From UHGV virus genome UHGV-0171999: a DNA stretch of 64,000 bases. One strand, 5' to 3'. The notes beneath the pieces were generated by a model. That model made no database searches. It saw only the letters and a list, made by a program, of their open reading frames with translations, and was not told the DNA's origin. Of the stretch, positions 5,523 through 59,498 are shown piece by piece. This DNA comes from a virus. Each line of letters begins with the position of its first letter. The stretch's first letter is position 1. The position numbers and the translations under genes are program-made.

Positions 5523-7221
5523 TTGTGTATTGACCAGATGAAATAGAACTCATAGATGCCATTTTTTCTGTCCAATCACCACCAACGTCCCAATCAACTG
5601 TCCCAGCAACTTTCCAAGAAAGATTTCCATTTACTGTATTAGTCTGATTTCCTTCAACTAAAGTGGTAGCATCTCCTTTAACTGTAATGTCAGCATTACC
5701 TTCAACTACAATAGTAACATTACCTTTAACTAGGATAGTTCCATTACCTTCAACTGTCTTAGTTTCATCGCCACGTACAAATATTGTATTACTTCCATCT
5801 ATCTGGTGAAGACGATTATCCATGTTGTAATAAATTTCTGAACCACCGACGTTAGTCTTTTTATCACCGGCTACCAAAAAATTACCATCAGCGTTGGTTA
5901 TATCATACAAATTATCAACAGTTTTTCTTGTTCTTCTTCCTGACGGTGATACTTCTTCATAAGTTCCAGTTGGATGAACTAATCTATATCGTTCTTGCCC
6001 AGGGGTATCATCAAATTCCTGAATATGACCACTTTCAGTTTCCATTGTGTGAACATACGGATATTCACCTTTATATGAAGAAACAGGTTCTTTGAATAAA
6101 ATTCTCGAATCATTCGGAATAGGAGGGTCAGCTGGATCAGAAGACTTCGCCACAGTAGCAGCCATTGCTGATAGAGACCTAGCTGGAGTTTTCACTTCAA
6201 TACCGTATGATTCCAAATTACCCGTAAGAATAATCATGGTAACACGGGATGCACGGCCTTTTGTTTGTTGATACCACAATGAATCACGACCAGCTTTATA
6301 TGCTTTTTCCCAATCTCCGGCTAACATAGCAGTTAACATTGTGTTAAATTTAGCTACACCGCCAACACCCATCTGAAATGCCATATTTTCTAATGCCATT
6401 TGACGAGAACGATTAACTGCTTGCCAAACTGGGCCAACTTTAGAATGTGATTTAATGTCACGTTGCATATCAGCCAAATCACGCTCAAATAAAGCTACCG
6501 CTTCTTCCATTGTAATAGAACCTGGATTTCCGGTAATTTCACGACCAACTTGTTTTGATAAAACTTTATTAATTTGGGTCATATCACGAACTGGCTGCTT
6601 CATGATAAGATGACCAATGCCAATTGTCGGATATCCTTCAGTATCCCAATAAACTTTTAGTCTTAATCCTTCATCACGGCGAAGCATTTCAGCCATTGAC
6701 ATATTTGGATTATCATCAGTTGGAATCTCTGATAACGGTCTATCATCGGGATTTATTGCAGTGTCTAGATTGCTATCTTGGATAATATTAGAAGACGAAT
6801 CATATCCTACTTCTCCGCCTTGGTTTAATACGTTAGTATCATTTCCTAGACGTCTAGGATACTGTCCAGTCGGGTCAGAAAATCCTTCAAGTCTATTAGG
6901 CTTTTCGCGAACTATTCCGCCATACGTGCCAAGGACAATTCCGTTAGTTTTCCATTTGTCTAAAAAATGACCATAAACTCTAGTTCCTTCTACCGGACCA
7001 GTAACGGAGCCTCCAATTCCAGACATTGCTGCAGAAGTTATAGGTTGAATAACTGACATCCATGGTAATTTATCAGTTGGAATACCCATTACGTCGCCTT
7101 GTGCTCTTTGAGGTGGATGCAGACCAACTACACGAACACGAACACGACCTAATTTTAATGGGTCCATTCTATCTTCAACAACACCAACAAACCAATTAAG
7201 GTTATTACTTATCATTTCCAT
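5494..7221 (-). CDS. 5: baseplate central hub and tail lysozyme gp5
   Basis: 575-aa ORF; internal lysozyme motif EMLRRDEGLRLKVYWDTEGYPTIGIGHL similar to gene e; C-terminal VxGxxxxx beta-helix repeats. Confidence 0.92.
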   Translation of the reverse strand: MEMISNNLNWFVGVVEDRMDPLKLGRVRVRVVGLHPPQRAQGDVMGIPTDKLPWMSVIQPITSAAMSGIGGSVTGPVEGTRVYGHFLDKWKTNGIVLGTYGGIVREKPNRLEGFSDPTGQYPRRLGNDTNVLNQGGEVGYDSSSNIIQDSNLDTAINPDDRPLSEIPTDDNPNMSMAEMLRRDEGLRLKVYWDTEGYPTIGIGHLIMKQPVRDMTQINKVLSKQVGREITGNPGSITMEEAVALFERDLADMQRDIKSHSKVGPVWQAVNRSRQMALENMAFQMGVGGVAKFNTMLTAMLAGDWEKAYKAGRDSLWYQQTKGRASRVTMIILTGNLESYGIEVKTPARSLSAMAATVAKSSDPADPPIPNDSRILFKEPVSSYKGEYPYVHTMETESGHIQEFDDTPGQERYRLVHPTGTYEEVSPSGRRTRKTVDNLYDITNADGNFLVAGDKKTNVGGSEIYYNMDNRLHQIDGSNTIFVRGDETKTVEGNGTILVKGNVTIVVEGNADITVKGDATTLVEGNQTNTVNGNLSWKVAGTVDWDVGGDWTEKMASMSSISSGQYTIDGSRIDIG

Positions 7222-36933: not shown

Positions 36934-38747
36934 CAATTGAAAAAGAAATTGAAGGATTGATTCATAAAACTAATAAAGACCTTTTAAACGAGAATGCTAA
37001 TAAAGATTCTCGTGTTTTTCCAACTCAACGGGACCTTATGGCTGGTATTGTGTCTAAACACATTGCCAAAAATATGGTCCCGTCTTTTATTATGAAAGCG
37101 CATGAAAGCGGAATTATCCATTTCCATGATATTGATTATTCCCCTGCTCTTCCATTTACTAATTGCTGTTTAGTAGATTTAAAAGGAATGCTTGAGAACG
37201 GGTTTAAGCTCGGTAATGCACAGATTGAAACTCCTAAATCAATCGGCGTTGCTACTGCAATTATGGCACAAATTACTGCACAGGTTGCTTCCCATCAATA
37301 CGGTGGAACGACTTTTGCGAATGTAGATAAAGTACTTTCTCCTTATGTTAAACGCACCTATGCAAAACATATTGAGGATGCAGAAAAATGGCAAATCGCT
37401 GATGCGTTGAATTATGCCCAATCTAAAACAGAAAAAGACGTATACGATGCATTCCAAGCTTATGAATATGAAGTAAATACTCTCTTTAGTTCAAACGGAC
37501 AGACTCCTTTTGTAACAATTACATTTGGTACGGGAACTGACTGGACTGAACGAATGATTCAGAAAGCAATTCTGAAAAATCGCATTAAAGGTCTCGGTCG
37601 TGATGGGATAACTCCTATTTTTCCTAAGCTCGTTATGTTCGTTGAAGAAGGTGTTAATCTTTATAAAGACGATCCGAACTATGATATTAAGCAGCTTGCT
37701 CTAGAGTGTGCAAGCAAAAGAATGTATCCTGATATTATTTCAGCTAAGAACAATAAAGCTATCACCGGCTCATCTATTCCTGTTTCTCCAATGGGTTGTC
37801 GTAGTTTCTTGAGCGTATGGAAAGATTCGACTGGTAATGAAATTCTTGATGGACGTAATAATCTTGGTGTTGTAACACTGAATCTTCCTCGTATTGCGTT
37901 AGATTCTTATATTGGAACACAATTCAATGAACAGAAATTTGTTGAGCTATTTAATGAACGAATGGATCTGTGTTTTGAAGCATTGATGTGCAGAATTAGT
38001 TCCTTAAAAGGAGTTAAAGCGACTGTTGCTCCTATTCTTTACCAAGAAGGTGCATTCGGGGTTCGTCTTAAACCTGATGACGACATAATTGAGTTATTTA
38101 AAAACGGTAGAAGTTCAGTGTCCCTAGGATACATTGGTATTCACGAATTGAATATTCTTGTCGGTCGTGATATTGGACAGGAAATTTTAACTAAAATGAA
38201 TGCTCGTCTTAAGCAGTGGACTGAAAGAACCGGTTTTGCTTTTAGCTTGTATTCTACTCCTGCTGAAAACCTTTGTTATCGCTTCTGTAAACTTGATACT
38301 GAAAAATATGGAAGCGTAAAAGATGTTACTGATAAAGGTTGGTACACTAATAGTTTCCATGTTTCAGTAGAAGAAAATATTACTCCGTTTGAAAAGATTT
38401 CTCGCGAAGCCCCATATCATTTCATTGCAACAGGTGGTCACATTTCTTATGTTGAACTTCCTGATATGAAAAATAACTTAAAAGGTCTTGAGGCTGTATG
38501 GGATTATGCTGCACAACATTTAGATTATTTTGGCGTTAACATGCCAGTAGATAAATGTTTTACATGCGGAAGCACCCATGAAATGACTCCAACCGAGAAC
38601 GGATTTGTTTGTTCTATTTGTGGAGAAACTGATCCTAAAAAGATGAATACCATAAGAAGAACATGCGGATATCTTGGAACTCCTAGCGTTGTTCCATGGA
38701 ATTTAGGTAAAATGAAAGAAATGGTAAAACGAGTAAAACATGCATAG
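36930..38747 (+). CDS. nrdD: anaerobic ribonucleotide reductase large subunit NrdD
   Basis: 605-aa uninterrupted ORF; C-terminal glycyl-radical and zinc region CFTCGSTHE...RRTCGYLG. Confidence 0.92.
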   Translation: MTIEKEIEGLIHKTNKDLLNENANKDSRVFPTQRDLMAGIVSKHIAKNMVPSFIMKAHESGIIHFHDIDYSPALPFTNCCLVDLKGMLENGFKLGNAQIETPKSIGVATAIMAQITAQVASHQYGGTTFANVDKVLSPYVKRTYAKHIEDAEKWQIADALNYAQSKTEKDVYDAFQAYEYEVNTLFSSNGQTPFVTITFGTGTDWTERMIQKAILKNRIKGLGRDGITPIFPKLVMFVEEGVNLYKDDPNYDIKQLALECASKRMYPDIISAKNNKAITGSSIPVSPMGCRSFLSVWKDSTGNEILDGRNNLGVVTLNLPRIALDSYIGTQFNEQKFVELFNERMDLCFEALMCRISSLKGVKATVAPILYQEGAFGVRLKPDDDIIELFKNGRSSVSLGYIGIHELNILVGRDIGQEILTKMNARLKQWTERTGFAFSLYSTPAENLCYRFCKLDTEKYGSVKDVTDKGWYTNSFHVSVEENITPFEKISREAPYHFIATGGHISYVELPDMKNNLKGLEAVWDYAAQHLDYFGVNMPVDKCFTCGSTHEMTPTENGFVCSICGETDPKKMNTIRRTCGYLGTPSVVPWNLGKMKEMVKRVKHA

Positions 38748-39570
38748 GTATTATATAATTTATAAAATAACAAATATAATTAATTCAAAGGAATATATCG
38801 GTGCGCATAGCACCGATAACATAAATGATGGTTATATGGGGTCAGGAACATTGATTCGTGCCGCTTTATTAAAATATGGTAGAAAAAATTTTAATAAAGA
38901 AATTTTACATGTTTTTGATAATGAAAAACAAATGTATGATAAAGAAGCTGAACTTGTAACCGAAGAGTATTGTCTAAAAGAAAATACATATAATATTAAA
39001 CCCGGTGGAAAAGGTGGAACTGCGTATGAACAGACACTTGAACATCGCCGCAAAAATAGTTTAGCAAATAAAGGTAAAAAGAGAACAGAAGAAACTAAAA
39101 TAGCTATTTCACGTGCTTTAAAGAAATATAAACGTACGCCAGAGCATCAAGCAAATTTAAATAAAGCCGTAAGCATAGCTATGAAGCGAAAAGATGTTAG
39201 AAGTAAATTAGCTGGAGAGCGGTCTGAGAAAGATAAATTATCTATATCAAACGGTGTTAAAAAATATTACAATTCTTTGAGTGAAGAAGAACGCGAACTT
39301 CATCGCAAGCGAATTATTGAAGGTAAAAAGAATTCTCCCATGTCATTGGAATCTAGACAAAAGCTTTCAAAAGCTTTAAAAGGACTTCAAGTTGGTTCAA
39401 AAAATCCAATGTATGGAAAAATTTCTCCAACTAGCAAAACCGTTTCAGTTGACGGTATTAAATATGATTCAATTAAAAAGTGCTCAAATGCAATAAAAGT
39501 TTCTAGACATCTTATACTAAAACGCTGTAATTCTACTGATGAAGCTTGGAAAAATTGGATATTATTATGA
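38740..39570 (+). CDS. free-standing GIY-YIG homing endonuclease (Seg-like)
   Basis: N-terminal YIIYKITN...EYIGAHS GIY-YIG module; C-terminal basic repeats resembling NUMOD3-type DNA-binding motifs; overlaps nrdD stop and nrdG start. Confidence 0.8.
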   Translation: MHRYYIIYKITNIINSKEYIGAHSTDNINDGYMGSGTLIRAALLKYGRKNFNKEILHVFDNEKQMYDKEAELVTEEYCLKENTYNIKPGGKGGTAYEQTLEHRRKNSLANKGKKRTEETKIAISRALKKYKRTPEHQANLNKAVSIAMKRKDVRSKLAGERSEKDKLSISNGVKKYYNSLSEEERELHRKRIIEGKKNSPMSLESRQKLSKALKGLQVGSKNPMYGKISPTSKTVSVDGIKYDSIKKCSNAIKVSRHLILKRCNSTDEAWKNWILL

Positions 39571-44070: not shown

Positions 44071-45285
44071 ATGAAAGTATGTATTTTTATGGCTCGAGGT
44101 CTTGAAGGTTGCGGTGTAACTAAATTTTCTCTTGAGCAGCGTGATTGGTTTATTAAAAATGGTCATGAAGTAACTTTGGTTTATGCTAAAGATAAATCAT
44201 TTACCCGTAATTGCGCGCATGATTATAAATCATTTTCAATTCCGGTTTTATTGGCAAAAGAATACGATAAAACGCTTAAGTTGGTAAATGATTGTGATAT
44301 TCTAATTATCAATTCAGTTCCTGCTACTTCAGTCGAAGAAGACACAATTAATAACTATAAAAAAATTATTGATAACATTAAACCTTCGGTTCGTGTTGTA
44401 GTTTATCAACATGACCATTCTTCTCTTTCTTTGCGCCGAAATTTGGGATTAGAAGAAACTGTTCGTCGAGCTGATGTTATTTTTAGTCATTCTGACAATG
44501 GTGACTTTAATAAAGTTTTAATGAAAGAATGGTATCCGGAAACTGTTTCTCTGTTTGATGATATTGAAGAAGCACCGACTGTATATAACTTCCAGCCTCC
44601 TATGGATATTGCGAAGGTTCGATCAACCTACTGGAAAGATGTTTCTGAAATTAACATGAATATCAACCGTTGGATTGGTCGTACGACTACATGGAAAGGT
44701 TTTTATCAGATGTTTGATTTTCACGAAAAACATCTTAAACCTGCAGGACTAAGTACTATTATGGAAGGTTTGGAACGTTCTCCAGCGTTCATTCCTATTA
44801 AAGAAAAAGGAATTCCAAAAGGAATTCCATACGAGTATTATCGTCTTCATCAAGTAGACCAAATTAAAATTGCTCCTAATTTGCCGACGCAAATTCTCGA
44901 CCGTTATGTAAATAGCGAAATGCTTGAACGCATGAGTAAATCCGGATTTGGTTATCAGCTGAGTAAGTTGGACAAAAAATATCTACAGCGTTCTTTAGAA
45001 TACACTCATCTCGAGCTTGGTGCATGCGGAACAATTCCAGTATTTTGGAAATCTACTGGTGAAAATTTAAAATTCCGTGTTGATAATACTCCATTAATTT
45101 CTCATGATAGCGGTATCGTTTGGTTTGATGAAAATGACATGGAATCAACATTTGAGCGTATTAAAGAACTGTCATCTGACCGAGCTCTTTATGACCGTGA
45201 ACGTGAAAAAGCTTATGAATTTTTGTATCAGCATCAAGATTCAAGCTTCTGTTTTAAAGAACAGTTTGACATTATTACAAAATAA
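44071..45285 (+). CDS. a-gt: DNA alpha-glucosyltransferase
   Basis: 404-aa ORF MKVCIFMARGLEGCGVTKFSLEQRDWFIKNGHEVTLVYAKDK...; strong match to recalled T4 alpha-gt. Confidence 0.9.
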   Translation: MKVCIFMARGLEGCGVTKFSLEQRDWFIKNGHEVTLVYAKDKSFTRNCAHDYKSFSIPVLLAKEYDKTLKLVNDCDILIINSVPATSVEEDTINNYKKIIDNIKPSVRVVVYQHDHSSLSLRRNLGLEETVRRADVIFSHSDNGDFNKVLMKEWYPETVSLFDDIEEAPTVYNFQPPMDIAKVRSTYWKDVSEINMNINRWIGRTTTWKGFYQMFDFHEKHLKPAGLSTIMEGLERSPAFIPIKEKGIPKGIPYEYYRLHQVDQIKIAPNLPTQILDRYVNSEMLERMSKSGFGYQLSKLDKKYLQRSLEYTHLELGACGTIPVFWKSTGENLKFRVDNTPLISHDSGIVWFDENDMESTFERIKELSSDRALYDREREKAYEFLYQHQDSSFCFKEQFDIITK

Positions 45286-52730: not shown

Positions 52731-55427
52731 ATGAAAGAATTTTATATCTCTATCGAAACAGTCGGAAATAATATTGTTGAGCGTTATATTGATGAAAACG
52801 GAAAGGAACGTACTCGTGAAGTAGAATATCTTCCGACTATGTTTAGGCACTGTAAGGAAGAGTCAAAATACAAAGACATTTATGGTAAAAATTGCGCTCC
52901 TCAAAAATTTCCATCTATGAAAGATGCACGAGACTGGATGAAACGAATGGAAGACATCGGTCTCGAAGCTCTCGGTATGAACGATTTTAAACTCGCTTAC
53001 ATCAGTGATACATATGGTTCAGAAATTGTTTATGACCGAAAATTTGTTCGTGTAGCTAACTGTGACATTGAGGTTACTGGTGATAAATTTCCTGACCCAA
53101 TGAAAGCAGAATATGAAATTGATGCTATCACTCATTATGATTCAATTGACGACCGTTTTTACGTCTTTGATTTGTTGAATTCAATGTACGGTTCAGTATC
53201 AAAATGGGATGCAAAGTTAGCTGCTAAGCTTGACTGTGAAGGTGGTGATGAAGTTCCTCAAGAAATTCTTGACCGAGTAATTTATATGCCATTCGATAAT
53301 GAGCGTGATATGCTCATGGAATATATTAATCTCTGGGAACAGAAACGACCTGCTATTTTTACCGGTTGGAATATTGAGGGATTTGACGTTCCGTATATCA
53401 TGAACCGTGTTAAAATGGTTCTCGGTGAACGCAGTATGAAACGCTTCTCTCCAATCGGTCGAGTAAAATCTAAACTAATTCAAAATATGTACGGTAGCAA
53501 AGAAATTTATTCTATTGATGGCGTATCTATTCTTGATTATTTAGATTTGTACAAGAAATTCGCATTTACTAATTTGCCGTCATTCTCTTTGGAATCAGTT
53601 GCTCAGCACGAAACCAAAAAAGGTAAATTACCATATGATGGTCCTATTAATAAACTTCGCGAGACTAATCATCAACGATACATTAGTTATAACATCATTG
53701 ACGTAGAATCAGTTCAAGCAATTGATAAAATTCGTGGGTTTATCGATCTAGTTTTAAGTATGTCTTATTACGCTAAAATGCCTTTTTCTGGTGTAATGAG
53801 TCCTATTAAAACTTGGGATGCTATTATTTTTAACTCACTGAAAGGTGAACATAAGGTTATTCCTCAACAAGGTTCGCACGTTAAACAGAGTTTTCCAGGT
53901 GCATTTGTGTTTGAACCTAAACCGATTGCTCGTCGATACATTATGAGTTTTGACTTGACGTCTCTGTATCCTAGCATTATTCGTCAGGTTAACATTAGTC
54001 CTGAGACTATTCGCGGGCAGTTTAAAGTTCATCCAATTCATGAATATATCGCAGGAACAGCTCCTAAGCCAAGTGATGAATATTCTTGCTCTCCGAATGG
54101 ATGGATGTATGATAAGCACCAAGAAGGTATCATTCCAAAGGAAATCGCTAAAGTATTTTTCCAGCGTAAAGACTGGAAAAAGAAAATGTTCGCTGAAGAA
54201 ATGAATGCCGAAGCTATTAAAAAGATTATTATGAAAGGTGCAGGGTCTTGTTCAACTAAACCAGAAGTTGAACGATATGTTAAGTTCAATGATGATTTCT
54301 TAAATGAACTATCGAATTACACCGAATCTATTCTCAATAGTCTGATTGAAGAATGTGAAAAAGCAGCTACACTTGCTAATACAAATCAGCTGAACCGTAA
54401 AATTCTTATTAACAGTCTTTATGGTGCTCTTGGTAATATTCATTTCCGCTACTATGATTTGCGAAATGCTACTGCTATCACAATTTTCGGTCAAGTTGGT
54501 ATTCAGTGGATTGCTCGCAAAATTAATGAATATCTGAATAAAGTATGTGGAACTAATGGTGAAGATTTCATCGCAGCAGGTGATACTGATTCTGTATATG
54601 TTTGTGTAGATAAAGTAATTGAAAAAGTAGGTCTTGACCGCTTTAAAGAACAAAATGATTTAGTTGAATTCATGAATCAGTTTGGTAAGAAAAAGATGGA
54701 ACCTATGATTGATGTTGCATATCGTGAGTTATGTGATTATATGAATAACCGCGAGCATCTGATGCATATGGACCGTGAAGCTATTTCTTGCCCTCCACTT
54801 GGTTCAAAGGGTGTTGGTGGATTTTGGAAAGCGAAAAAACGTTATGCTCTGAACGTTTATGATATGGAAGATAAGCGATTTGCTGAACCGCATCTAAAAA
54901 TCATGGGTATGGAAACTCAGCAGAGTTCAACACCAAAAGCAGTACAAGAAGCTCTCGAAGAAAGTATTCGTCGTATTCTTCAGGAAGGTGAAGAGTCTGT
55001 CCAAGAATACTACAAGAACTTTGAGAAAGAATATCGTCAACTTGACTATAAAGTTATTGCTGAAGTAAAAACTGCGAACGATATAGCGAAATATGATGAT
55101 AAAGGTTGGCCAGGATTTAAATGTCCGTTCCATATTCGTGGTGTGCTAACTTATCGTCGAGCTGTTAGTGGTTTAGGTGTAGCTCCAATTTTGGATGGAA
55201 ATAAGGTAATGGTTCTTCCATTACGTGAAGGAAATCCATTTGGTGACAAGTGCATTGCTTGGCCGTCGGGTACGGAACTTCCAAAAGAAATTCGTTCTGA
55301 CGTACTGTCTTGGATTGACTACTCAACTTTGTTCCAAAAATCGTTTGTTAAACCGCTTGCGGGCATGTGTGAATCGGCGGGTATGGACTATGAAGAAAAA
55401 GCTTCGTTAGACTTCCTGTTTGGCTGA
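52731..55427 (+). CDS. 43: DNA polymerase gp43 (family B, with 3'-5' exonuclease)
   Basis: 898-aa ORF; exo motif CDIEV, polymerase motifs SLYPS and YGDTDS. Confidence 0.95.
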   Translation: MKEFYISIETVGNNIVERYIDENGKERTREVEYLPTMFRHCKEESKYKDIYGKNCAPQKFPSMKDARDWMKRMEDIGLEALGMNDFKLAYISDTYGSEIVYDRKFVRVANCDIEVTGDKFPDPMKAEYEIDAITHYDSIDDRFYVFDLLNSMYGSVSKWDAKLAAKLDCEGGDEVPQEILDRVIYMPFDNERDMLMEYINLWEQKRPAIFTGWNIEGFDVPYIMNRVKMVLGERSMKRFSPIGRVKSKLIQNMYGSKEIYSIDGVSILDYLDLYKKFAFTNLPSFSLESVAQHETKKGKLPYDGPINKLRETNHQRYISYNIIDVESVQAIDKIRGFIDLVLSMSYYAKMPFSGVMSPIKTWDAIIFNSLKGEHKVIPQQGSHVKQSFPGAFVFEPKPIARRYIMSFDLTSLYPSIIRQVNISPETIRGQFKVHPIHEYIAGTAPKPSDEYSCSPNGWMYDKHQEGIIPKEIAKVFFQRKDWKKKMFAEEMNAEAIKKIIMKGAGSCSTKPEVERYVKFNDDFLNELSNYTESILNSLIEECEKAATLANTNQLNRKILINSLYGALGNIHFRYYDLRNATAITIFGQVGIQWIARKINEYLNKVCGTNGEDFIAAGDTDSVYVCVDKVIEKVGLDRFKEQNDLVEFMNQFGKKKMEPMIDVAYRELCDYMNNREHLMHMDREAISCPPLGSKGVGGFWKAKKRYALNVYDMEDKRFAEPHLKIMGMETQQSSTPKAVQEALEESIRRILQEGEESVQEYYKNFEKEYRQLDYKVIAEVKTANDIAKYDDKGWPGFKCPFHIRGVLTYRRAVSGLGVAPILDGNKVMVLPLREGNPFGDKCIAWPSGTELPKEIRSDVLSWIDYSTLFQKSFVKPLAGMCESAGMDYEEKASLDFLFG

Positions 55428-55440
55428 TAGAATAAATCTA

Positions 55441-55461
55441 GGGACCTCCGGGTCCCTTTTT
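55441..55461 (+). terminator. intrinsic terminator after gene 43
   Basis: gggacc-tccg-ggtccc followed by ttttt. Confidence 0.65.
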
Positions 55462-55544
55462 CATACAAGTAATATAAATCTATACTTAGGAAAAATAGAT
55501 GATTCTAGGTCCTGTAAATTCATTAAAATTTTTTTCACAAAACT

Positions 55545-55574
55545 GTTTACATCCCTGTTCTTCCATGGTACTAT
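55545..55574 (+). promoter_or_regulatory. early promoter
   Basis: GTTTACA, 17 bp, TGgTACTAT followed by acaactatcaactac; near-identical to the cassette at 13851. Confidence 0.6.
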
Positions 55575-55602
55575 ACAACTATCAACTACGGAGGAACACA
55601 AA

Positions 55603-55854
55603 ATGAAAAATATTCAAACTAATTTTATTCAAAATTTAAAAGTTGTTAATGCAGAAAAAGCTAATAAACTCTTTAAAGTTAAAGAATTCGAAAATGAAGG
55701 TAATACTTATGGTATTATAGAACAAAATGGAATGGTGACTGGATTAGAAATTTATATTGGCAAAGGAAAATTTCAGTCACAGCCAATTTCTGTTATGGGT
55801 GTAAGAAAAGGAATTAAAATTGAAGATGCTTTAAAATTATTTGCTAAGTTTTAA
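55603..55854 (+). CDS. hypothetical protein
   Basis: 83 aa from Met 55603; ORF 55420-55854 upstream part is promoter read-through. Confidence 0.5.
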   Translation: MKNIQTNFIQNLKVVNAEKANKLFKVKEFENEGNTYGIIEQNGMVTGLEIYIGKGKFQSQPISVMGVRKGIKIEDALKLFAKF

Positions 55855-55866
55855 GAGGAAATTGTT

Positions 55867-56247
55867 ATGAAAATCGCTATTTTGGTTATTGCATTAGGTC
55901 TTACTGGTTGTGTAGCTCAAGGACCGGTAGTGAATCAGTCTGATGTAGGAAAAATTGTAAACTGTTCAAGCAAATTTTATAATCCTAATGTCAAGTGTTA
56001 TAAAGAAGCTCCAAAGCAGACAGTAGAACAAATGCAGGCGAATTTTGACGAAGCTATTCGTCCAGATGAATCTGCTCAAGCATATCGTAATTCAGATGTG
56101 ATTACACGTGAAGAAAAAATTGAAAACTACTGCGCCGAACTTTGGGTTAATTGGGCTAATAATTACCAATGGCGTACTGGTAAAAATGCTCCAATGGAGT
56201 ATGTAGTGAATTCTTATAATTCATGCGTAAAAAATTTGACTAAGTGA
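55867..56247 (+). CDS. predicted lipoprotein
   Basis: Signal peptide with lipobox MKIAILVIALGLTGC. Confidence 0.5.
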   Translation: MKIAILVIALGLTGCVAQGPVVNQSDVGKIVNCSSKFYNPNVKCYKEAPKQTVEQMQANFDEAIRPDESAQAYRNSDVITREEKIENYCAELWVNWANNYQWRTGKNAPMEYVVNSYNSCVKNLTK

Positions 56248-56254
56248 GGAAAAA

Positions 56255-56506
56255 ATGGAAACTTTAGTAGCAGGTTCAATTTTTATGGTTTTAGTTTCAG
56301 GCGTGTTGGCTATTATTATATACATGCTTCCGTGGTTCATCGCCTTGATGCGTGGGTCAAAATCGACAGTAGGAATCTTTTTCACATCTTTACTGTTTAA
56401 CTGGTCAATTATTGGTTGGTTTATTACATTTATTTGGTCAATTGCGGGTGAAACTAAAAAATCTGTGCAGCAAAATCAAGTAATTATCATCAGAGAGAAG
56501 GAATGA
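56255..56506 (+). CDS. imm: superinfection immunity membrane protein Imm
   Basis: 83-aa ORF with two hydrophobic helices, located between 43 and 42 as in T4. Confidence 0.6.
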   Translation: METLVAGSIFMVLVSGVLAIIIYMLPWFIALMRGSKSTVGIFFTSLLFNWSIIGWFITFIWSIAGETKKSVQQNQVIIIREKE

Positions 56507-56659
56507 AAAGCAAATTTTTAGCAGTATTGCTTTTAATCTTGATGATTATAATAAGTATATACTATAGCGTAACGGTTCCTTGTATGATTCCGACACTTAT
56601 TATAGGTTGGGGTTTATTACTGTTACAAGTTAAATATGAATGTATCAATTGAGGTTTAA

Positions 56660-57400
56660 ATGATTAATGACTCTTTGACAGTTGAAGAAATCCGTCTTCA
56701 TTTGGGAATTGCGTTAAAGGAAAAAGATTTCGTAATTGATAAAACTGGCGTTAAAACTATTGAAATTATTGGTGCATCATTTGTAGCAGATGAACCTTTT
56801 ATTTTTGGCGCTCTTAATGATGAATACATTCAACGTGAACTTGAATGGTACAAGTCTCAAAGTCTGTTTGTTAAAGATATTCCAGGTGAAACACCAAAGA
56901 TTTGGCAACAGGTAGCATCTTCTAAAGGCGAAATTAACTCGAATTATGGTTGGGCCATCTGGTCAGAAGATAACTATGCCCAGTATGATATGTGTTTAGC
57001 TGAACTTGGTCAAAATCCTGATTCTCGACGTGGTATCATGATTTATACTCGTCCATCCATGCAGTTTGACTACAACAAAGATGGTATGTCAGATTTCATG
57101 TGTACTAATACAGTACAGTACCTGATTCGTGATAAGAAAGTCAATGCAGTAGTAAGCATGCGCTCAAATGACGTGGTCTTCGGATTCCGTAATGATTATG
57201 CATGGCAAAAATACGTATTAGATAAATTAGTATCTGATTTGAATGCAGGCGATTCAACTCGTCAGTATAAAGCAGGTTCTATTATATGGAATGTTGGAAG
57301 TCTTCATGTATATTCTCGTCATTTTTACTTGGTTGATCATTGGTGGAATACTGGCGAAACTCATATTGTGAAAAAAGACTATAAAGGTGAGTGGAAATGA
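56660..57400 (+). CDS. 42: dCMP hydroxymethylase gp42
   Basis: 246-aa ORF MINDSLTVEEIRLHLGIALKEKDF...; matches recalled T4 gp42. Confidence 0.92.
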   Translation: MINDSLTVEEIRLHLGIALKEKDFVIDKTGVKTIEIIGASFVADEPFIFGALNDEYIQRELEWYKSQSLFVKDIPGETPKIWQQVASSKGEINSNYGWAIWSEDNYAQYDMCLAELGQNPDSRRGIMIYTRPSMQFDYNKDGMSDFMCTNTVQYLIRDKKVNAVVSMRSNDVVFGFRNDYAWQKYVLDKLVSDLNAGDSTRQYKAGSIIWNVGSLHVYSRHFYLVDHWWNTGETHIVKKDYKGEWK

Positions 57401-58239
57401 TTCAATTCGTAATTCCAAGTTATCAGCGTGTCGGGGCAGTTTCTGCCCTTGATATGTTTCCGACTGATTATGAACCCCATATTGTAGTGCGTGAACATGA
57501 AGAAAAAGCTTATTATGACGCTTACGGGTCTAGAGCTAAAATTGTAGTTATTCCCGATGATGTAAATGGAATTGCTGGAACTCGTAAAGCAATTACTGAT
57601 ATGTATGCAGGCCAACGAATTTGGATGATTGATGATGATACTACTATTCGTATGAGTTCAATGCGAAAGAAAGATGATCGTCGCTGCGTAGATAAAATTA
57701 ATCAATTAACTCGTGAACAGTTCTATGAATTGATTCAATACGTGGAAGATGCAATGGATTGCGGGTATTATCATGGTCATGCTCGTCTACCTATTTTTAA
57801 AATTACTTCATCTTGGGGTAATTATCGTGAAAATTCATATGGATTCACGAATACCTGGTATGACCTCGGAAAACTTACAACAGAACAAATTGGGTATGGA
57901 AAAATTGATTTATGCGAAGATATGTATGCATTTCTCAATTTAATTAATCAAGGTTATCCGCATTTGGCCTTGTTCAAATATCTGGTTGTATCTGGAAAAG
58001 CACAGGCTCCTGGCGGATGTAGTTCAATTCGTAGTAATTCAAAACATAATAGAGCGCTCGAGCAAATCAATAGAGAATTTCCAGAGCAAGCTCGTTGGAA
58101 AACATCGAATATTGAAAATAGAAAATCGTTGGGTGAAGAAGACGAGCCATTAAAAGTTCTTCGCATGTGTGTTTCACGTAAAGAAAAATCAGAAGCATTT
58201 CATAAGTTTAATGCTATTCATCCAATAGCAGTTGATTAA
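57397..58239 (+). CDS. GT2-family (GT-A fold) glycosyltransferase at the beta-gt locus; not T4 beta-gt-like
   Basis: N-terminal FVIPSYQR (GT2-type IPxYN motif) and DxD motif WMIDDDT; ATGA overlap with gene 42; lies between 42 and uvsX. Confidence 0.6.
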   Translation: MIQFVIPSYQRVGAVSALDMFPTDYEPHIVVREHEEKAYYDAYGSRAKIVVIPDDVNGIAGTRKAITDMYAGQRIWMIDDDTTIRMSSMRKKDDRRCVDKINQLTREQFYELIQYVEDAMDCGYYHGHARLPIFKITSSWGNYRENSYGFTNTWYDLGKLTTEQIGYGKIDLCEDMYAFLNLINQGYPHLALFKYLVVSGKAQAPGGCSSIRSNSKHNRALEQINREFPEQARWKTSNIENRKSLGEEDEPLKVLRMCVSRKEKSEAFHKFNAIHPIAVD

Positions 58240-58316
58240 TGCCTAAATTTATTGTGTTATAATTACTCTATCTTTAACCAGTGAGGAAAATATAATGATG
58301 CCTATGGAAAAAATGA

Positions 58317-59498
58317 ATGTCTATTGCAGATTTAAAATCCCGTTTGATTAAAGCTTCCACTTCTAAAATGACTGCTGAACTGACTACATCTAAATTCTTT
58401 AATGAAAAGGATGTAATCCGTACAAAAATTCCAATGCTTAATATCGCTATTTCTGGTGCGATTGATGGCGGCATGCAGTCTGGTTTAACTATTTTCGCAG
58501 GGCCTTCTAAACACTTTAAATCAAATATGTCTTTGACTATGGTTGCGGCATATTTGAACAAATATCCTGACGCGGTTTGTCTATTCTATGATAGCGAATT
58601 TGGTATTACTCCAGCTTATTTGCGATCCATGGGAGTTGACCCGGAACGAGTAATTCATACGCCGATTCAGTCAGTTGAACAGCTGAAAATTGATATGGTG
58701 AATCAGCTTGAAGCTATTGAGCGCGGTGAAAAGGTTATTGTATTCATCGACTCAATCGGTAATATGGCTTCTAAGAAAGAAACGGAAGATGCCTTGAATG
58801 AAAAATCTGTGGCAGATATGACTCGTGCTAAATCACTGAAGTCATTATTCCGTATTGTTACTCCTTATTTTAGTATTAAAAACATTCCATGTGTTGCGGT
58901 TAACCATACAATTGAAACAATTGAAATGTTTAGTAAAACCGTGATGACAGGTGGTACAGGCGTAATGTATTCGGCTGATACTGTATTCATTATCGGTAAG
59001 CGCCAGATTAAAGATGGATCTGATCTTCAGGGGTATCAATTTGTTCTAAATGTAGAAAAATCTCGTACCGTCAAAGAAAAAAGTAAATTCTTTATTGATG
59101 TTAAATTTGACGGTGGTATCGATCCTTATTCTGGATTGTTAGATATGGCTCTTGAATTAGGATTTGTGGTAAAACCTAAAAATGGCTGGTATGCTCGTGA
59201 ATTTCTTGACGAAGAAACCGGCGAGATGATTCGCGAAGAAAAATCTTGGCGTGCAAAAGATACCAATTGCACTACATTCTGGGGTCCTTTATTTAAGCAT
59301 CAACCATTCCGAGATGCTATTAAACGTGCTTATCAGTTAGGTGCTATTGATAGTAATGAAATTGTTGAAGCTGAAGTTGATGAATTGATTAACTCAAAGG
59401 TTGAAAAATTTAAATCTCCAGAAAGTAAAAGTAAATCAGCAGCTGATTTAGAAACTGACCTAGATCAGTTAAGTGATATGGAAGAATTTAATGAATAA
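58317..59498 (+). CDS. uvsX: RecA-like recombinase UvsX
   Basis: 393-aa ORF; Walker A GPSKHFKS; strong match to recalled T4 UvsX. Confidence 0.95.
   Translation: MSIADLKSRLIKASTSKMTAELTTSKFFNEKDVIRTKIPMLNIAISGAIDGGMQSGLTIFAGPSKHFKSNMSLTMVAAYLNKYPDAVCLFYDSEFGITPAYLRSMGVDPERVIHTPIQSVEQLKIDMVNQLEAIERGEKVIVFIDSIGNMASKKETEDALNEKSVADMTRAKSLKSLFRIVTPYFSIKNIPCVAVNHTIETIEMFSKTVMTGGTGVMYSADTVFIIGKRQIKDGSDLQGYQFVLNVEKSRTVKEKSKFFIDVKFDGGIDPYSGLLDMALELGFVVKPKNGWYAREFLDEETGEMIREEKSWRAKDTNCTTFWGPLFKHQPFRDAIKRAYQLGAIDSNEIVEAEVDELINSKVEKFKSPESKSKSAADLETDLDQLSDMEEFNE

Follow-up and report, generated by a model that had tools for sequence, protein, structure and literature searches.

In phage T4, the interval between gene 42 and uvsX carries b-gt together with the homing endonuclease gene segA. 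In the DNA studied here, a stretch of 64,000 nucleotides from the viral genome UHGV-0171999 (the window; about 64 kb of a genome of roughly 168 kb), an earlier note had placed a glycosyltransferase gene of another kind between these two genes. This raises the question which enzyme is encoded at this locus, and which sugars are to be expected on the hmC of the phage.

An intact gene between gene 42 and uvsX

The earlier note had drawn an open reading frame of 280 aa at 57397-58239, between gene 42 and uvsX, and we confirm it at this position (plus strand, 280 aa plus the stop codon). Both motifs which had been quoted from it are present verbatim, FVIPSYQR as residues 4-11 and WMIDDDT as residues 76-82. 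The program-made list of open reading frames lets this frame start at GTG 57391, six bases before the ATG at 57397; the ATG agrees with the annotated starts in T2 and in the Durham Tequatrovirus phages vB_Eco_CP and vB_Eco_EL (CP and EL in the following). The start codon overlaps the TGA stop codon of gene 42 in the sequence ATGA (57397-57400, plus strand), and a comparison of the annotated loci revealed the same junction in T2, T6, CP and EL. Gene 42 and the gene downstream of it are probably translationally coupled and co-transcribed.

At the base composition of the window, an open frame of 280 codons would arise by chance with a probability of about 3e-10. Comparison with four relatives gave dN/dS values of 0.04-0.06, i. 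e. the sequence is under purifying selection. The frame is intact, and the residues which are invariant in an alignment of nine family members (R11, D79-D81, E174-D175 and others) are all kept. Thus 57397-58239 is a real gene under selection. Its annotation as a coding sequence is based on the open reading frame, on sequence identity and on the profile matches reported below.

The neighborhood is that of a T4-like phage. Upstream lies gene 42 (56660-57400, plus strand), coding for dCMP hydroxymethylase, which matches Pfam Thymidylat_synt and is 95% identical to T4 gp42. The downstream neighbor is uvsX (58317-59498, plus strand), which matches Pfam T4_UVSX_C and RecA and is 90% identical to T4 UvsX. 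According to the annotations of T6, T2, T4, CP and EL, the gene between them takes the place of T4 b-gt. It is separated from uvsX by only 77 bp (58240-58316), in which segA is absent. The alpha-gt gene for the DNA alpha-glucosyltransferase, which the earlier note had reported, is indeed found at 44071-45285 on the plus strand (Pfam AGT, E=2.8e-234). Hence both genes required to make the acceptor, the hmC synthase gene 42 and alpha-gt, are contained in the window. Taken as a whole, the window shares 96-97% identity with many Tequatrovirus genomes and has an exact match in none of them.

Assignment to the TAGT family

The encoded protein is identical to the T2 enzyme in 273 of 280 residues (97.5%; the T2 sequence is the same in two independent records) and to the T6 enzyme in 271 of 280 (96.8%). 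It matches Pfam PF20691, the TET-associated glycosyltransferase (TAGT) family, with 40.4 bits at a gathering cut-off of 27.5 and over profile positions 2-205 of 205. PHROG 842, which is named beta-glucosyl-HMC-alpha-glucosyltransferase, was matched with E=6.3e-89, and NCBIfam holds no model for this protein. With megablast the gene was found in 475 phage records, with nucleotide identities of 90-97%; many of these records are annotated as beta-glucosyl-HMC-alpha-glucosyltransferase. Around 200 further records with 60-80% identity, from Klebsiella, Enterobacter, Citrobacter and related phages, were detected by tblastn, and a large protein search yielded no more than 10 clusters (48-98% identity).

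The earlier note had considered a T2/T6-like beta-glucosyl-HMC-alpha-glucosyltransferase as one candidate, and the identities together with the Pfam TAGT and PHROG 842 matches speak for this candidate. It is almost certain that 57397-58239 encodes the T2/T6-type enzyme (ba-gt, also called ggt or TAGT; glucosyl-DNA beta-glucosyltransferase), which attaches a second glucose to alpha-glucosyl-hmC. What the present analysis establishes is the identity of the gene, its intactness, its conservation, its predicted fold and its genomic context.

The protein is an ordinary allele of the T2/T6 gene. It has the same length of 280 aa as the T2/T6 enzyme, the same locus, the same ATGA coupling, the same partner alpha-gt and the same invariant residues. 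It differs from T2 by 7 substitutions and from T6 by 8, to which the amber codon of T6 has to be added. The TAGTs of CP and EL, where synteny is identical, differ from that of the window by 6 and 8 residues, respectively. V51, K92 and N241 do not occur in T2, T6, CP or EL, and all three lie outside the invariant columns. V50 and I101 are shared with EL, whereas alpha-gt of the window is of the T2/CP type. At positions 11 and 251 the window TAGT has R and P as in T6 and CP, which are rich in gentiobiosyl-hmC, and unlike T2.

In contrast, the similarity to T4 beta-gt is restricted to position and chemistry. The T4 gene is syntenic, as it lies between gene 42 and uvsX too; its product uses UDP-glucose as the donor and forms a beta linkage, as does the ba-gt enzyme. 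The two differ in the acceptor, which is hmC itself for T4 b-gt and alpha-glucosyl-hmC for the ba-gt enzyme, and in the fold, which is GT-B for T4 b-gt and predicted to be GT-A for the ba-gt protein (PMC13216743). As the earlier note had claimed, the protein does not resemble T4 beta-gt: BLASTP between the two gave E=3.4 and PF09198 was not matched. With T4 b-gt as tblastn query against the entire 64-kb window, the best hit had E=4.6. On these values, a diverged T4-type b-gt at 57397-58239 was rejected.

An arabinosyltransferase or another sugar transferase, likewise brought up earlier, is not needed to explain the gene. The arabinosyltransferases of Mosigvirus act on 5-hydroxycytosine, which originates from a 5-hydroxy-dCMP synthase. 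Mosigvirus uses a different precursor (PMC13390438), and the context argues against an enzyme of this (RB69) type, as gp42 is 95% identical to the hmC synthase gp42 of T4 and the window resembles Tequatrovirus genomes at 96-97% identity.

The arrangement, which the earlier note had contrasted with that of T4, is not unusual. Most Tequatrovirus genomes combine alpha-GT with TAGT, and either alpha-GT or beta-GT together with TAGT is the common pairing, while alpha-GT with beta-GT, the combination known from T4, is restricted to 6 of 753 genomes (all PMC13216743). Having ba-gt in place of b-gt is therefore the normal arrangement in T4-like coliphages, and the exception is T4. The finding is correct, but it describes the ordinary case and is already in the literature in nearly identical terms. 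The phage is assigned by it to the common class with alpha-GT plus TAGT, which helps in annotating the genome and in predicting sensitivity to defence systems but reveals no new biology.

Predicted fold and candidate active site

The predicted structure of the ba-gt protein is a GT-A fold, with a single Rossmann-like alpha/beta/alpha domain which is similar to solved GT-A enzymes. In Foldseek searches with this model the scores were weak (best E=5.7e-4, TM 0.35-0.42), and the loops at residues 132-140 and 193-211 have low confidence. The alignment behind the structure model is shallow, and the term "invariant" refers throughout to the alignment of nine sequences. Sequence searches of the PDB retrieved only unrelated proteins, both with the single protein (best E=0.79) and with a profile of the nine sequences (best E=0.24). 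By these searches, the ba-gt family is without a solved structure. The T6 TAGT has also been modelled as a GT-A fold (PMC13216743).

FVIPSYQR (57406-57429, plus strand) is the motif of the first beta-strand, which spans residues 3-7 in the model, and it ends with the invariant R11. It probably marks the usual place where nucleotide binding begins in a GT-A domain. D79-D80-D81 (57631-57639, plus strand) form a DxD-type motif, are invariant and directly follow the model strand of residues 74-78, which is beta-strand 4. GT-A enzymes canonically carry their DxD motif at this place, and D79-D81 are predicted to bind a divalent metal and the diphosphate of UDP. With the predicted GT-A fold and the invariant D79-D81 at the DxD position, the GT-A hallmarks proposed in the earlier note are borne out. 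E174-D175, which belong to the sequence LCEDMY, are invariant as well and lie at the N-terminus of a model helix comprising residues 174-184 (57916-57921, plus strand). By analogy to the ED/TED motif of GT2 enzymes, they are candidates for the catalytic base of an inverting GT-A enzyme.

The label "GT2-type" that had been given to the protein holds at the level of the fold, which is GT-A, but not as a family assignment. The Pfam GT2 model PF00535 was not matched at E<=1, and PF20691 was the only significant Pfam hit. Inverting GT2 enzymes with GT-A structures, e. g. TarS, TarP, BcsA and AvpGT, have at most 17% identity to the ba-gt protein, and their acceptors differ from that of ba-gt, which is a sugar on duplex DNA. 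Structural clustering placed TAGT outside GT2, as its sister group (PMC13216743).

Expected composition of the virion DNA

In the proposed pathway, Gp42 would supply hm-dCMP, which the polymerase would incorporate into DNA. The alpha-gt product would then use UDP-glucose to place an alpha-linked glucose on hmC. TAGT, presumably a soluble enzyme with GT-A fold, would attach a second glucose derived from UDP-glucose to the 6-OH of the alpha-glucose in beta-1,6 linkage, so that gentiobiosyl-hmC would result. The configuration must be inverted when UDP-glucose, an alpha-linked donor, gives rise to a beta linkage, and this fits a GT2-like inverting mechanism, in which the metal and UDP would be held by D79-D81 and E174 or D175 would act as the base.

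The T2/T6 enzyme is known to add a beta-1,6 glucose to alpha-glucosyl-hmC and thereby to form gentiobiosyl-hmC (PMC6024577, PMC13216743), and for T2/T6 and close relatives this chemistry has been established by LC-MS and genetics (PMC6024577, PMC11078745, PMC13390438). In Tequatrovirus phages which have alpha-GT plus TAGT and are devoid of beta-GT, LC-MS detected hmC, alpha-glucosyl-hmC and gentiobiosyl-hmC but no beta-glucosyl-hmC (PMC13390438). Since the TAGTs of CP and EL are only 6 and 8 residues away from that of the window, the same three species, unmodified hmC, alpha-glucosyl-hmC and gentiobiosyl-hmC, are to be expected in the virion DNA of this phage, and beta-glucosyl-hmC is not. The earlier note had predicted that the decoration would not follow the T4 alpha/beta-glucosyl pattern; as an expectation, this gains support from the sequence, which belongs to a TAGT-family enzyme and not to a T4-type beta-gt. 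Possibly, a b-gt gene lies outside the visible 64 kb of the genome, though b-gt normally occupies the gene 42-uvsX locus.

The proportion of gentiobiosyl-hmC varies widely between related phages. In T2 it is about 5% (PMC6024577), in T6 72%, in CP about 67% and in EL about 40% (PMC13390438). Across these four phages, neither the allele type of alpha-gt nor any single TAGT residue tracked cleanly with the gentiobiosyl level. The alpha-gt type was rejected as a predictor, with T2 (5%) and CP (about 67%) sharing one type and T6 (72%) and EL (about 40%) the other.

Relevance to anti-phage defence

The activity of ba-gt decides whether the hmC of a phage bears a single glucose or gentiobiose, a disaccharide. 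Brig1 excises alpha-glucosyl-hmC; T6 DNA, which is rich in gentiobiosyl-hmC, was not degraded by it in vitro, whereas the DNA of T6 without ba-gt contained alpha-glucosyl-hmC only and was degraded (PMC11078745). BapA is unable to release glucose from gentiobiosyl-hmC (bioRxiv 10.64898/2026.02.25.707755). GmrSD targets alpha-glucosyl-hmC and gentiobiosyl-hmC alike (PMC13216743).

Alternative readings

The phage could contain the expected species in unusual proportions. A four-residue duplication in its alpha-gt (KGIP, described below) and the three substitutions private to its TAGT could shift the ratio of unmodified, mono-glucosylated and gentiobiosylated hmC beyond those known from T2, T6 and the Durham phages. 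We regard this as very improbable; if true, it would change the sensitivity to defences of the Brig1, BapA and GmrSD type.

A second alternative is that the enzyme belongs to the TAGT family and has a changed specificity, so that it uses another donor sugar or acts on hmC or beta-glucosyl-hmC, and the product is not gentiobiosyl-hmC. Distant TAGT homologs with about 64% identity are found in phages where beta-GT replaces alpha-GT or where TAGT is the only glycosyltransferase (PMC6024577, PMC13216743). Because these homologs occur without alpha-GT, the acceptor specificity probably varies within the family, and the three private substitutions of the window TAGT relative to T2, T6, CP and EL would fit such a change. 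Yet only 6-9 residues separate it from the enzymes of these four phages, for which gentiobiosyl-hmC was measured (PMC13390438), no invariant column is affected by a substitution and a matching alpha-gt is present. A changed specificity is thus very improbable here.

Least probable of all is that ba-gt is present but weak or inactive, which would leave the DNA essentially alpha-glucosylated only, as in T2 or in a more extreme form. T2 itself has a nearly identical gene and reaches only about 5% gentiobiosyl-hmC (PMC6024577). Moreover, ba-gt carries lesions in both public T6 records, and thus loss or attenuation of the gene does occur in stocks. In the window, however, the frame is uninterrupted and none of the invariant residues is lost, among them DDD79-81 and R11, which is H in T2. 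The low dN/dS of 0.04-0.06 and the coupling of the start codon to gene 42, which active relatives share, also argue against a weak or inactive gene.

Alleles of ba-gt and alpha-gt in related phages

The lesions of ba-gt in the two public T6 genome records are different ones. MH550421.1 has an in-frame TAG at codon 10 (CAG to TAG; locus L001, about 5951-5953, minus strand). The CDS annotated in this record (L001 5138..5923, 261 aa) starts at Met20, and its product would be without the first beta-strand. Since T6 is the reference phage for 72% gentiobiosyl-hmC, either the sequenced stock had mutated at this codon or the sequence is in error. In AP018814.1 (locus L006, 5135..5974, minus strand), Q10 is intact and a 3-bp deletion (GATGATGAT to GATGAT) affects codons 79-81. 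It converts WMIDDDT to WMIDDT, so that one Asp of the invariant DDD is lost.

The TAGTs of T2 and CP differ in three residues only, R11H, A30V and P251S. H11 and S251 are found in both T2 records (locus L002, 5286..6128, minus strand; locus L007, 2228..3070, plus strand). R11 is encoded at 57427-57429 in the window and is invariant in the nine-sequence alignment; R11H may be a candidate explanation for the 5% gentiobiosylation of T2.

For alpha-gt, two allele types with about 91% identity to each other can be distinguished, one in T4, T6 and EL and the other in T2, CP and the window; members of one type share 99% identity. Over 400 aligned residues, alpha-gt of the window is 99% identical to those of T2 and CP and 91% to those of T4, T6 and EL. 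It contains a 12-bp tandem duplication at 44806-44829 (AAAGGAATTCCA twice), which results in KGIPKGIP at residues 246-253 and in a length of 404 instead of 400 aa. This duplication is absent from T2, T4, T6, CP and EL, and a junction-specific query of 40 nt had no match in 50,697 phage records; an assembly artefact is possible. In T2, T6, CP, EL and the window, the alpha-gt types and the TAGT alleles are combined as a mosaic, i. e. they assort independently.

A GIY-YIG sequence similar to segA is located elsewhere in the window, at 38746-39084 on the plus strand (49% identity over 115 aa, E=2e-26). In a scan of 55400-58400 for sigma-70 promoters and terminators, sites were no commoner than in shuffled sequence. 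Among those picked up by the terminator scan was a G+C-rich stem-loop with a stem of 7 bp and a weak T-tail (GGGGCAGTTTCTGCCCT, 57433-57449, plus strand), and sites of this kind were likewise no commoner than in shuffled sequence. The stem-loop covers codons 13-18 of ba-gt, shortly after the start codon; its 17 bases are identical in T2 and T6.
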